A stretch of 64,000 bases of DNA from Squalus acanthias (lineage: Eukaryota), in contig CM059425.1 in assembly GCA_030390025.1 (NCBI GenBank), positions 260,710,001 through 260,774,000 of the forward strand. Reading direction: 5' to 3'. The position numbers were made by a program, and so were the translations under genes. The notes below the pieces were generated by a model, which was given only the letters and a program-made list of their open reading frames with translations, did no database searches and had not been told where the DNA came from. Below, in pieces: positions 4,730-53,788 of this stretch (position 1 is the stretch's first letter; every line of letters starts with the position of its first letter).

Positions 4730-4801
4730 ATCCACAGGAGTCTGAGAGTCTCCCTGTCTACAGCACTGTTAAATGTCTAAGACCCCACCAAGCAGTGACA
4801 G
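4730..4801 (+). CDS. Gene P cytoplasmic exon (72 nt, phase 1-1): DPQESESLPVYSTVKCLRPHQAVT
   Basis: Acceptor cctttacag, donor gtaagg; same length and phase as its paralogs; not in the ORF track. Confidence 0.8.
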
Positions 4802-5771: not shown

Positions 5772-5843
5772 ATGCGCAGGAGGGAGAAGCTGCTCTCTAT
5801 AGCACTGTCAACAAACCCAAACCACCTCAAGCAGAACAGACGG
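5772..5843 (+). CDS. Gene P cytoplasmic exon (72 nt, phase 1-1): DAQEGEAALYSTVNKPKPPQAEQT
   Basis: Acceptor tcttgatag, donor gtaaga; paralog of the 949 and 4730 exons. Confidence 0.8.
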
Positions 5844-12825: not shown

Positions 12826-12869
12826 CTGTAATTTACGCGACTATCATCAAGTCCACCAAACAGCTGTAA
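12826..12869 (+). CDS. Gene P last coding exon: AVIYATIIKSTKQL* (canonical ITIM VIYATI)
   Basis: Acceptor tttctttttcag; phase 1 matches the upstream exon; TAA at 12867-12869; donor gtgagt at 12873. Confidence 0.75.
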
Positions 12870-20603: not shown

Positions 20604-20987
20604 CTCTCCTTCTCCTCCAGATCACTAAGGCAATAACAACCAGGATTATCAGAACGACACTTCCAACCGAAACATAGATCATGAGTTCGAGCAGAAACCG
20701 CTCCCCGTCGACGCTGGTGAAGTAGATGGCGTGGGCGACACTGCCTTGGTCGTTGGTGGCCACACAGCTGTAGTTTCCCCTAAGCTTCGGGTCGTGTAGT
20801 TCTCCCACCATCTGGTACTTCCCCGGCCCTCGCATTACCGGTGTGTTGCTGCCGTTCACGGGGAGTCTGTTGTTCTGGGGATCAATCCACATGATGTTTG
20901 GGGAGGGTTCCCCTTCCACCAGGCACACTAAGGTGAACTGCGTGGCGTTAACGACTGTGATAGACAGGTTGAGGATGGCTGGCGGGC
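20604..20987 (-). CDS. Gene A Ig C2-set + TM exon (384 nt, phase 1-1)
   Basis: LVCLVEGEPSPNIMW...GNYSCVATN; TM LMIYVSVGSVVLIILVVIALVIW followed by RRRR; acceptor tttgttctcag, donor gtaggt. Confidence 0.92.
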
Positions 20988-22321: not shown

Positions 22322-22732
22322 CTGTTACTTCCAAGATGGTTCCAGGGTTGGTTTCATCCATGAAAGTTTGCAGTCCCTGACGTTTGACTTCCACACGACA
22401 GAAGTACTGACTGTTGTCATCGAGCATGGCATGTTTCAGCTCTAACGAAGCATCGTTTTGCCTGGGGTCCCCGGCCAGTCCGTATCGGTCATTGACGTTT
22501 GTGTGAACTACATTTTCGAACTCCTTGTCGTGATCCTTGACCCTGTTGGTCGAGTTGAACAGAACCGGCCCTTTGTAAAACACCTTGATCTTCCAGATGA
22601 CTGTAATCTCAAAGGTAGTGTAATGAGAATAGGAGGAGTTGAACTGGCAGGGCAAAACGACAGAGCTTCCGACCATCCCGCTCACTCGCCTCGGTACTTT
22701 CACGGACACTGGCACCAGCACTCCATTACTTC
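22322..22732 (-). CDS. Gene A Ig V-set exon (411 nt, phase 1-1), Siglec-15-like with the F-strand Arg
   Basis: VVLPCQF...W...GDPRQNDASL...QYFCRVEV resembles Siglec-15 (GNPRRNDLSL...RYFCRVEF); canonical splice sites. Confidence 0.92.
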
Positions 22733-37697: not shown

Positions 37698-37719
37698 TCA
37701 GGCTGTACGGTCACTTAAT
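37698..37719 (-). CDS. Gene B last coding exon: RLSDRTA* (exon 37696-37719)
   Basis: Acceptor ttttctatttcctcccacag; donor gtaagt 2 nt after the TGA; phase 2 matches. Confidence 0.7.
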
Positions 37720-38367: not shown

Positions 38368-38751
38368 CTTTTATTCTAATGAAGAGAATGATCCCCGTTA
38401 TCAGAAGGAGGAGAAATTTAGCTAGAGGGATCAGGCACAGCATCCCGATAATGAAATTCGAGTAGTTCCTGTCATCAGCGGGTAAGTGGATCTGACGGAC
38501 GTCACTCCCGTGTTCATTTGCAGCCACACAGCTGTAGTCCCCTCTCAGCGTTGGGTTCAGAATCTCTCCCACAGTTTGATGTTTGTCCGGCACTCGTGTG
38601 ACTGTCGTGCTACTGCTGTCCACGGGCAGTGCGTTGTTTTCAGGGTCGATCCATGTGATGTTTGCGGGTGGCTCCCCTTCAACCTTGCACACGATGGTTT
38701 CTCCAGTTATATTATCGGTCACAACCGACAGCTCCAGGATGGTGGCTGGAG
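38368..38751 (-). CDS. Gene B Ig C2-set + TM exon (384 nt, phase 1-1), TM contains Lys
   Basis: IVCKVEGEPPANITW...GDYSCVAANEHG; TM FIIGMLCLIPLAKFLLLLITGIILFI; same length as the gene A exon. Confidence 0.92.
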
Positions 38752-42850: not shown

Positions 42851-43219
42851 CAACAACCTGTAGTCTCATCACATCCTGAGTCACGTTTTCCCCTCGCTCA
42901 TTCTCGATGTGCACGTGACAGAAGTAGTCGCTGGTGTCGTTCAGCCCCAGGTCCCTCATCCTTATGGAGGCGTCTCCTTGGGTTGGGTTTCTGATCAGCT
43001 CATATCGATCTCCTTGATTTACACTAACTGTGTCAGTATAGTGAGAACCAGCGGCAAGGAAACGAGTGTGATTAAAAACAGTGGACTCTTGGCATGGATT
43101 CTCCTTCATCCAGAGGACAGTGATGGAGCTCGGATACCGGCCAGGGGGACTGAAGGTGCAGGGCAGTGTGGCAGAATCTCCCTTCTTCCCAGTCACTGGT
43201 CGGGTATTGTTCTTATCAG
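42851..43219 (-). CDS. Gene B second Ig V-set exon (369 nt, phase 1-1)
   Basis: SATLPCTF...W...NPTQGDASI...DTSDYFCHVHI; acceptor ttctctacctcag, donor gtaagg. Confidence 0.9.
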
Positions 43220-43374
43220 CTGAGGTAGAGAACGGTTTTGAAGAATGGACATTATTCATTAGCACAGTGCATTAAACACAGTTTACACTACGTTTGCATG
43301 TGTGGCGATATTCTCTGAAACAGAAAGTGAGGCATCTTTACAACAAATATAAAGGACTACTTCCCCTCCAATAA

Positions 43375-43843
43375 AAAGAAAGACTTGCATTTCTACAGCA
43401 CCTTTCATGACATCAGGACGTCCCAAAGCGCTTTACAGCCAATGAAGTACTTTTGAAGTGTAGTCACTGTTGTAATGTAGGAAACGAGGCAGCCAATTTG
43501 CACACAGCAAGCTCCCACAAGCAGCATTGTGATAATGACCAGATAATCTGTTTCTCAGTGATGTTGGCTGAGGGATAAATATTGGCCAGGACACCTGGGG
43601 AGAACTCCCCTGCTCTTCTTCGAATATTGCTGCGGGATCTTTTACGTCCACTTCAGAGAGCAGACGGGGCCTCGGTTTAACGTCTCATCTGAAAGACGGC
43701 ACCTCCGACAGTGCAGCACTCCCTCAGCACTGCACTGGGTGTGTGTGCCTGGATTATGGGCTCAAGTCCCTGGAATGGGACTATGAACCCACAACCTTCT
43801 GACTCAGAGGCAAGAATGCTACCCACTGAGCCACAGCTGACAC
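43375..43843 (-). mobile_element. DeuSINE (SacSINE1-like)
   Basis: Reverse complement of the 31741 element. Confidence 0.8.
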
Positions 43844-44683
43844 AGAGAAGGCTAAGATGAGATTTATTCAAGGTTTTTTAAAATTATAAAGAGTTTTGAT
43901 AGAACATAAGAACTTAAGAATTAGGAGCAGGAGTCGGCCATACGGCCCATCGAGCCTGCTCCGCCATTCAATAAGACCATGGTAAATTTTTACATTAACT
44001 CCACTTTCCCGCCCGATCCCCATATCCCTTGATTCCCTTAGTGCCCAAGAATCTATCGATCTCCGCCTTGAATATACTCAACGACTGAGCATCCTCAGCC
44101 CTCTGAGGTAGAGAATTCCAAAGATTCACAACCCTCTGAGTGAAGAAATTTCTCCTCATCTCAGTCCTAAATGGCCGACCCCTTATTCTGAGACTGTGAC
44201 CCCTGGTTCTAGACTCTCCAGCCAGGGGAAACATCCTCCCTGCATCTACCCTGTCAAGCCCTCTAAGAATTTTGTATGTTTCAATGAGATCACCTGCCAT
44301 TCTTCTAAACTCCAGAGGATATAGCCCATTCTATTCAATCTTTTTGAATAGTGGTCATGGGATCCTTTACGTCCACCTGAGAGGGCAGACGGGCCTCAGT
44401 TTGTCTCATCCGAAAGACAGCACCGAGCCACATAAGGAGATATTAGAAAAGGTGACCAAAAGCTTGGGTCAAAGAGGGCGGTTCACATGATGGGGCTCAG
44501 GGGGCGGATATGCATGAAAAGGAAAAATTTACAGGGCTATGGGGAAAGAGCCGGGGAGTGGGACTAATTGGACAGCTCTTTCAAAGAGCCGGCACAGGCA
44601 CACTGGGCCAAATGGTCTCCTTCTGTGTTGGATGATTCTATGACCCCAATTATCTGATTTTCCAGCTTTAAACAATTCCTCAC

Positions 44684-45079
44684 CTGATACAAGAATTGTT
44701 TGAAACAAGCTTTGGGATGTTTGATTCGAATATTCCTGGAGATCCACAAGGCAAATATATTGTTGATAGTTATCGCGTAGAGTCAATGATTTAATGATGA
44801 TGGAAGCGTCGTTCTCCCTCGGGTTTCCCATCACTCGGTAGCGCTCGTCCAAATTCTGATGGATCAGATTCTCAAACCCATTGCTCTGCGAGTTGAGCGA
44901 CGGATAATTTGTGTAACTAAAAAGCGTCACATTTATCCACCTTTCCTTCCAGGTGACGGTGATGTTGCCTTGATATCCAGGGTGAGGGTGAGTGAACTTG
45001 CAGAACAGAACAACAGACTTCCCTTCCCTACCCGTCACCCTATCTGGGGTCTCCATACTCCAGTTATACTCACCGAAAC
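44684..45079 (-). CDS. Gene B first Ig V-set exon (396 nt, phase 1-1), Siglec-15-like
   Basis: WSMETP...VLFCKFTHPHPGYQGNITVTWK (Siglec-15 has LPCTFTHPH)...GNPRENDASI...YICLVD; acceptor ttcttatgcctcacag, donor gtgagg. Confidence 0.9.
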
Positions 45080-51790: not shown

Positions 51791-53788
51791 CCTCCCTAGA
51801 TCAGAGAGCACTCTATTATTTTTATTCATTCATTCACGGAATGTGGCCGTCGCTGGCAAGGCCAGCATTTATTGCCCATCCCTAATTGCCCTTGAGGAGG
51901 TGGTGGTGAGCCGCCGCCTTGAACCGCTGCAGTCCGTGTGGTGAAGGTGCTCCCACAGTGCTGTTAGGTAGGGAGTTCCAGGATTGTGACCCAGCGACGA
52001 TGAAGGATTAGCGATATATTTCCAAGTCAGAATGGTGTGTGACTTGGAGGGGAACTTGGAGGTGGTGGTGTTCCCATGCGCCTGCTGCCCTTGTCCTTCT
52101 AGGTGGTAGAGGTCGCAGGTTAGGGAGGTGCTGCCGAAGAGGACAACTGCACTGTTCCTACCATCGGCTATCAGCTAACATCTTTACCCAGAGAGTGGTG
52201 AGAATGTGGAACACGCTACCACAGGGAGTGATTGAGGCGAATAGCATAGGGGCATTTAAGGGGAAGCTAGATAAACACATGAGGGAGATGAAGAGGGGTG
52301 GGAGGAGGCTCGTGTGGAGCCTAAACATCGGCACTGAGCAGTTGGGCCGAATGGCCTGTTTCTGTGCTGTAATATTCTATGTAATTCTATGTAACATCAG
52401 GGATCGGTCCTGCGACAATCCTAGGCTGTACGGCTCAGCTATTCACTAGACAAGCTCAGTGAACCGCTGGACGAGTGCAATTAATAACTGACCCACGGCA
52501 CATTTTTCTTTGGTTTGTTATTAAACCAAAGTGCTGTCATCGGACAATCGAAGGACAAAAAGCTTCCGAAGCTCAATTTTGAACCTTTAACTTTTCTCTC
52601 AAGTATCGTAAAGAATTCATCAGGGTAACGAGATGCTTAGCCAGCCTTGAAGTCAGTTGCCTTATCAGAAGGGACTTAGCTGAGTGAGCGCGAAGGTGCT
52701 AACCATGCCGTGGGCACTCACACACATCTAACATTAACACGCTAACACTTTACCAATAACCTAGAGTGAGAGTGTCAATCTCTGGCCATTTACCACAAAT
52801 TTAAACAGGAAAGAGATTAGTTGCTGCTTCACATTGTGAGCTACGCACCTCCAGCGCAGGTAACCTGGGCGCTCATACAGAGCAAGGCGGTCAGCATTGT
52901 CCTCCTCAGTCCCTCGGTCTTCATTCCCCCTTCTGTCGGTTGACCCTGCTCAGCACTGAGATTGAGCCTGAACCGCTTCCTTCCGAGCCCTGCAGTCAGT
53001 GTTAAAACTCCGCCCACAGCCAGGCACCTTAACCCTTTAGCTGCCAGGCCGATGAGTGAACCGAATAGGCACCCTTTCTTCCTGGCGTTTGTTTTTTTTC
53101 AGCCACTGTTGCTGGCGGGGCCTGCAAGAGGTGAAGTTAAAAAGTTGACGGGACACATCGGGGCAGACTTTGGACTTGCAGCCAGGGCGTAAAACTGGCA
53201 TTACGGATCCCCCACCCCCTCCCCTGTTATAGAAACCGCCCGATTTTCGATTTGAAACCGATGGAAATGAATCTTACACAGAATTTACAGCACAGAAACA
53301 GGCCATTCGGCCCAACTGCTCCGTGCCGGTGTTTATGATCCACACCAGCCTCCTCCCACCACTCTTCAGCTAACCCCATCAACATATCCTTCAATTCCTT
53401 TCTCCCTCATGTGTTTATCTAGCTTCCCCTTAAATACATCTATACTATTCGCCTCAACCACTCCATGTGGTAGCGAGTTCCACATTCTCACCACTCTCTG
53501 GGTAAAGAAGTTTCTCCTGAATTCCCCATTGGATTTATTAGTGACTATCTTATATTGATGGCTCCTAGTTCTGGTCTCCCCCACAAGTGGAAACATCTTC
53601 TCTCCGTCTACCCTATCAAACCCTTTTCATAATCTTAAAGACCTCGATCAGGTCGCCCCTGCAGAAAAGGATCCAATCTGTTCAATCTTTCCTGATGGTT
53701 ATAGCCTCTCAGTTCTGGTATCATCCTTGTAAATCTTTCTTGCACCTTCTCCAGTGCCTCGATATCCTTTTTGTAATATGGAGACCAG

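Follow-up and report, generated by a model that had tools for sequence, protein, structure and literature searches.

Two Siglec-type genes, A and B, lie on the reverse strand of the window, a 64,000-nucleotide stretch of the Squalus acanthias genome (GCA_030390025.1, contig CM059425.1, positions 260,710,001 to 260,774,000). Gene B comprises, in order, a signal-peptide exon (52849..52897, with its ATG at 52897 and a phase-1 donor), a Siglec-15-like V-set exon, V1 (44684..45079; 396 nt, B–F cysteines C26/C109), a second V-set exon, V2 (42851..43219; 369 nt), an exon encoding a C2 domain and a transmembrane (TM) segment with a lysine (38368..38751; lysine codon 38419-38417), and a last coding exon (37715..37719) that completes a single aspartate ahead of the stop codon, giving the five-residue tail IRIKD. 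The signal-peptide exon, whose join to V1 is a prediction, is the top-scoring ATG-to-GT candidate against the N termini of named orthologues, and a second in-frame ATG lies upstream at 52924. The product has 400 residues—two named orthologues have 401—and follows the Siglec plan of a type I membrane protein with a V-set and then a C2-set domain, to which V2 is an addition. A search of the whole genome with its TM segment gives a single match.

V1 carries the motif YICLVD (leucine codon CTT, 44750-44748) and V2 the motif YFCHVH (histidine codon CAC, 42917-42915), each without the arginine found in the YFCRVE of gene A. An earlier, sequence-only reading of the locus had given these motifs, the outer limits of the exon pair and the open frames with canonical splice sites, and all are borne out: both exons are open, phase 1 and bounded by AG/GT, and all three V domains of genes A and B score at or above the Pfam V-set cut-off. 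V1, V2 and C2/TM are joined in one contig at the predicted boundaries in three of the four public runs examined, and the V1–V2 joint and the joint 38368-37719 to the last exon are present in all four. These runs come from two studies and none is recorded as RNA (the label is a guess), yet their contigs skip the introns. No variant is listed at the V1 leucine codon in these transcript contigs; the V2 histidine codon becomes glutamine, still not arginine, in those of two runs. Seven of the ten V2 variants correspond to a paralogue base, and contig variants may be paralogue chimeras.

Gene A has a single V exon (22322..22732) and an exon for C2 and a neutral TM segment (20604..20987), the second of which has a partial copy in L036; neither a signal nor a tail exon was identified. 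Its V domain keeps the arginine, the aromatic residue at +11 and an equivalent of Siglec-15 Tyr87, and has valine at the W44 position. On the forward strand, four tyrosine-motif tail exons (949-1020, 4730-4801, 5772-5843, and 12826-12869) were recognised by tblastn to named paralogue tails. Judged by splice sites and frame, with predicted joins, they most likely belong to the adjoining Arg-bearing V1-V2-C2 paralogue, the nearest to gene B, whose ectodomain exons are in L005. The tail of this L005/L006 paralogue, adjoining gene A, is made of repeated 72-nt exons.

Searches of the same genome return 29–33 V matches for each query, mostly at C1:260.2-261.8 Mb, and exons in this cluster were paired into genes by order and strand, gene B excepted. 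The cluster holds six B-type genes with both V1 and V2 (V1 being frameshifted in one) and one V2-C2 copy for which no V1 was found, three C-type genes (one of them V1-V1-V2), five D-type genes, and the single-V gene A. The V-V layout, which the sequence-only reading had singled out in gene B, is thus shared by about 14 genes. Thirteen of 15 open first-V exons have the arginine (gene B has leucine, L003 histidine), and none of the 15 V2 exons in the genome does, including those of genes with an Arg-bearing V1. Tandem V domains of which the second lacks arginine are thus the common plan of the family, and of the double arginine loss noted in gene B, only the V1 half is therefore informative. The other B-type genes have neutral TM segments, which makes gene B the only one of its subfamily to be of activating type. 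V2 of gene B also has a third cysteine, in its C–C′ loop (window 43100-43120, reverse strand), that could form an inter-chain bond; it occurs in 7/7 in-genome B-type copies and is absent from the named orthologues.

The D-group (L015-L020, C1:260.92-261.81 Mb), in whose genes V1 has arginine and V2 leucine, is a second and classical paired set: a TM exon lying close by bears lysine in L015-L018 and L020 and is neutral in L019. The V1 pN/pS of the group is about 2.7, with few synonymous changes. Four intact D-group genes combine a V1 arginine with a TM lysine. The C-group (L009-L013) has the most Siglec-15-like V1 (arginine and an extra cysteine pair), includes the V1-V1-V2 copy and a neutral TM candidate in L011, and shows a V1 pN/pS of about 2; its V1 query found one match among longer proteins, which is weak evidence. 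Decaying copies occur, such as L004, with a one-base frameshift in V1 (L004:7770-8150), and L003, in which the V1 arginine has become histidine (L003:7672-8091), and truncated V exons lie in L037 and L020. Unplaced contigs (L039:5322-5681, C1353) carry a distinct family of V exons, marked by YYCRVE and presumably PILR-like.

The best sequence match in the PDB is human Siglec-15 (7zoz) for V1 (E 1e-13), V2 (1e-11), and the V domain of gene A (1e-13). An AlphaFold model of V1 (pLDDT 86.6) likewise finds 7zoz as its first structural match (TM 0.81; Z 18.7 and rmsd 1.7 over 119 residues, the next match having Z 15.2), and C26 and C109, which form the B–F disulfide, are invariant in alignment A2. 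The corresponding CD33 match of V1 reaches an E value of 2e-6, and V1 has the F-strand cysteine, unlike CD33-type domains. By these comparisons, and with homologues sampled from cartilaginous fish, gene B is a descendant of the Siglec-15 type. The SLC14A and ATP-synthase genes, which we take to be markers of the mammalian SIGLEC15 block, lie elsewhere: SLC14A-type genes are at C2:51-55 Mb and an ATP synthase subunit gene is at C2:5.5 Mb, with the cluster on C1. No Siglec-15-like V was detected within 150 kb after SLC14A and no anchor gene in the 100 kb on each side of the cluster, where the 128 of 551 candidate flank open reading frames scanned in Pfam gave mobile-element domains only. A long open LTR-retroelement pol frame (L048:6577-9999) lies just before the cluster.

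In Siglec-15, sialic acid is contacted by R143, Y154, W44, Y87, and the backbone of V150, R153, and E155, and mutation R143A is reported to abolish binding (PMC10264397). The V1 leucine and V2 histidine of gene B align to this essential arginine, as the sequence-only reading had supposed; the register of R143 and Y154 is set by the L005 paralogue, which aligns without gaps to the Siglec-15 hairpin and places phenylalanine on Y154. At that G-strand aromatic position, which in Siglec-15 contacts the glycerol chain, gene B has serine in V1 (44717-44715) and valine in V2. The V1 F–G hairpin (44684..44790, reverse strand) thus combines the leucine and serine changes with an N-Q-T N-glycosylation sequon (44726) at the position of Siglec-15 residue 151, a set specific to the activating type. 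The tryptophan matching W44 is retained. The sole arginine near the site face, V1 position 46 close to the C–C′ loop, is arginine in 1/16 aligned rows; the compensating arginine that could have undone the sequence-only claim is not conserved anywhere near the site across these rows. With leucine, serine and the sequon in place, and the only nearby arginine in one row, loss of sialic-acid binding is predicted, and gene B is unlikely to bind this sugar. Since the lectin-defining residues are missing, gene B is better not classed among functional Siglecs.

Homologue searches matched proteins of cartilaginous fish only (13 and 35), a set then enlarged by cluster look-up. Orthologues were taken to be the proteins with a TM lysine and a short tail—the TM lysine being read by eye in P0004, P0015, P0022, P0023, and P0032—with P0051 included through its 90% cluster with P0003. 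Leucine replaces the V1 arginine in 15 of 16 named elasmobranch orthologues (14/15 aligned species and a partial Heptranchias model). The exception, P0004 from Mustelus, has arginine and phenylalanine on the V1 hairpin, the aromatic being kept in no other of the 16 rows. Within V1, L113, N118, T120, and Q126 are invariant in 16/16 rows and Q122 and T127 are present in 15; N and T of the sequon are accordingly unchanged throughout (a valid sequon in 15 rows), while none of seven inhibitory-type rows has it. In matched species, conservation of the hairpin is 65–67% among activating-type V1 domains versus 35–44% among inhibitory ones. The TM segment, within which a cysteine is conserved, is 76–86% identical to all 11 elasmobranch orthologues compared versus 6–18% to the neutral-TM paralogues, and gene B is single-copy with 1:1-like orthologues.

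Models from two catshark species (Scyliorhinus P0015, P0060-P0063) are without most of V1 and keep V2-C2-TM(Lys), and both carcharhiniform genera seen, Mustelus and Scyliorhinus, thus break the V1 leucine rule. Callorhinchus has two genes with a TM lysine, P0023 with tryptophan in place of the arginine and P0022 with arginine. V2 arginine is present in Rhincodon and Chiloscyllium plagiosum. Among the neutral-TM partners, several of which have ITIM/ITSM-like motifs, arginine is found in 6/7 rows, Callorhinchus P0024 having cysteine. A two-copy complex prediction for the ectodomain of orthologue P0002 (residues 17–362), run without an alignment, scored 0.00.

The domains of gene B differ sharply in their closest relatives. 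V2 and C2 share 94–97% and 93.5–95.5% nucleotide identity, respectively, with inhibitory-type paralogues of the same genome, compared with 85–88% over V1 codons 1–98 and 44–46% over the V1 F–G region; the similarity covers exons and short flanks, with no alignment over the TM segment or unique intron sequence. At the protein level, V2 is 91–96% identical to the four paralogues compared and 50–79% identical to elasmobranch orthologues, whereas the F–G hairpin is 18–21% identical to four paralogues and 55–82% and 42–58% identical to shark and ray orthologues, respectively. Trees, from which isoforms (P0007, P0019, P0031), fragments (P0030, P0032, P0033, P0035), and truncated V1 domains were excluded, show the same division. 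The V1 tree unites the 11 Lys-TM rows from elasmobranchs in a single clade (87/91, not starred); in the V2 tree, Lys-TM and neutral genes pair by species (this genome, Heterodontus, Heptranchias, Pristis, and Callorhinchus), and the C2 tree mixes the two types by species in like manner. Approximately unbiased (AU) tests, with Callorhinchus rows excluded, reject a single Lys-TM clade for C2 (p-AU 2e-89) and V2 (6e-4). Skates are the exception: there, for V2 as for C2, each type has a clade of its own, and matching has thus lapsed. Taken together, V2 and C2 have likely been homogenised by exon-limited gene conversion that spared the binding site, a process that may be a by-product of proximity. 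Among paralogues, pN/pS is about 1.2 for V2 and 1.05 for C2 over few differences, giving no clear arms-race signal, and the value of 0.92 for B-type V1 paralogues shows no positive selection.

As a description, it is very probable that gene B belongs to a paired Siglec-15-like family, of which it is an activating-type member, conserved and without the arginine. The sequence-only reading had overlooked the lysine in the membrane segment, the shortness of the tail and the inhibitory-type partners among the paralogues. The lysine-dependent coupling of Siglec-15 to DAP10/12 is established (PMC7226832), and activation is thus the likely output of gene B, probably through a DAP12-type adaptor; a search of the genome for the DAP10 family gave no match, small exons making such a search weak. 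Paired receptors acting as counter-traps and bacterial ligands that act independently of sialic acid are known (PMC6288428). Our preferred reading, to which we give a probability of about 0.5, is that gene B is an activating decoy twin, predicted to be sialic-acid-blind, of its inhibitory-type, Arg-bearing neighbours. Repeated exon-limited conversion would keep the V2/C2 surfaces that it shares with these paralogues matched, and selection would purge conversions that restored the arginine or overwrote the TM segment. A microbial or parasite protein making protein contact with the inhibitory paralogues would then trigger gene B too, which self sialoglycans would not. Such a decoy would account for the copying and for the spared site alike. 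Against it, activating-type receptors need not lose the arginine, as the four D-group genes, Callorhinchus P0022, the Mustelus orthologue, and Siglec-15 attest; the lapse of matching in skates, the catshark models short of V1, and the lack of a selection signal in B-type V2/C2 count against it as well.

A further difficulty for the decoy is that the V1 hairpin is conserved beyond the needs of mere binding loss, which favours a receptor with its own ligand. The hairpin would then have become a new site that binds either a host protein or some conserved structure other than sialic acid, and homogenisation of V2/C2, a mere stalk, would be a tolerated by-product. Such a role is possible: the activator-specific G-strand motif is strongly conserved over the 16 rows, orthology is close to one-to-one, and arginine has been replaced, here by tryptophan, in Callorhinchus P0023 too. 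An invariant sequon beside the site would, however, point to a face that is masked and not to one left bare for binding; the catshark models lack most of V1 and retain the remainder, and Mustelus displays both arginine and phenylalanine on the same hairpin. The sequence-only proposal of a non-sialic-acid ligand such as a pathogen protein fares unevenly: sialic-acid binding does look unlikely, and a hairpin that is conserved and not fast-evolving also fits a conserved role.

It is unlikely that gene B serves as a signalling subunit in cis, pairing through V2/C2 with Arg-bearing paralogues and tuning or converting their sialic-acid signal. Co-evolution of V2/C2 would preserve the homotypic contacts needed, and the conserved TM cysteine and the additional V2 cysteine of the in-genome copies would suit such pairing, but the latter is missing from the named orthologues and known paired Siglecs are described as separate receptors (PMC6288428). 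Still less probable is a receptor for sialylated or sulfated glycans that works by another mode or a compensating arginine; the retained W44-equivalent, the arginine at position 46, and the V2 arginine of Rhincodon and Chiloscyllium plagiosum speak for it, against which stand the restriction of position 46 to one row, the loss of the aromatic as well, and the effect of R143A on Siglec-15 (PMC10264397). Least credible of all, and contradicted by the orthologues, is private decay of a redundant Siglec, which retention of the arginine elsewhere would have implied. Sporadic arginine loss does occur in the cluster (histidine in L003, the frameshifted L004), but leucine in 15/16 named species, an intact spliced frame, and a conserved TM segment show that the loss is not private.

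If the decoy reading is extended beyond this species, cartilaginous fish would possess a paired system with inverted logic, one in which a glycan-capped, blind activator has copied inhibitory surfaces since before the shark–ray split, roughly 270–300 million years ago, and reads not 'sialic acid' but 'engaged by non-self protein', with Mustelus as a natural revertant. This wider picture is offered tentatively. Siglec-15 is regarded as one activating lectin, single and conserved, and gene conversion between paired Siglecs has been described in primates. In cartilaginous fish, expansion of a Siglec-15-like family has produced both activating and inhibitory-type genes, one of which has retained a disabled sugar site in sharks and rays alike. 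A natural test set, bearing on what an Arg-less Siglec does and on whether decoys arise against pathogens that exploit inhibitory Siglecs, is made up of gene B, a paralogue that has the arginine, the Mustelus revertant, and the V1-less catshark form. Proteins of this type stand in NCBI under automatic names, many as Siglec-15, and the names Siglec-15 and Siglec-12 on shark proteins probably overstate lectin activity. Within the literature searched, which took in few subscription journals, no account of a shark Siglec-15-like V-V family was found; parts of the family may already have been described in subscription work on Siglec evolution, and the whale-shark genome paper makes passing mention of Siglecs.

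Among known systems, Siglec-15 itself shares the B–F disulfide and the TM lysine, which falls within two residues in the phmmer alignment. It differs in that gene B has an additional V2, no equivalent of Arg143 or Tyr154, and a multigene paired cluster around it; furthermore, V1 of gene B contains two cysteines only and so lacks the C95–C104 pair of Siglec-15, in the region of which C- and D-group V1 domains have two extra cysteines. PILR-alpha and PILR-beta form a Siglec-fold pair in which the activating, DAP12-associated member binds ligand more weakly (PMC13358205). These have a single V domain, arginine in both members, and a lower structural match to gene B (Z about 14). A Trp/Leu difference in the G strand is reported to underlie the weaker binding of PILR-beta.

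The primate pairs Siglec-5/14 and Siglec-11/16 resemble the shark genes in having an activating Lys-TM gene beside inhibitory genes with tyrosine motifs, and in their concerted evolution (PMC6288428, PMC5701461). They are of the CD33-type lineage, however, and the gene B family is Siglec-15-type. Conversion between SIGLEC11 and SIGLEC16 is described as including the binding exon (PMC5701461) and keeps glycan preference alike, whereas in gene B the binding hairpin has been left out, across sharks and rays. Siglec-12 (Siglec-XII) likewise has tandem V-set domains and has lost the arginine of the first, through R122C in humans (PMC6288428); that loss is recent and human-specific, in a CD33-related gene with common null alleles, and the loss in gene B is old and conserved, in a receptor of activating type. 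With Siglec-15 rather than a CD33-type protein as its best match, gene B is, as the sequence-only reading proposed, of separate origin, and its likeness to Siglec-12 is, on this affinity, one of convergence only.
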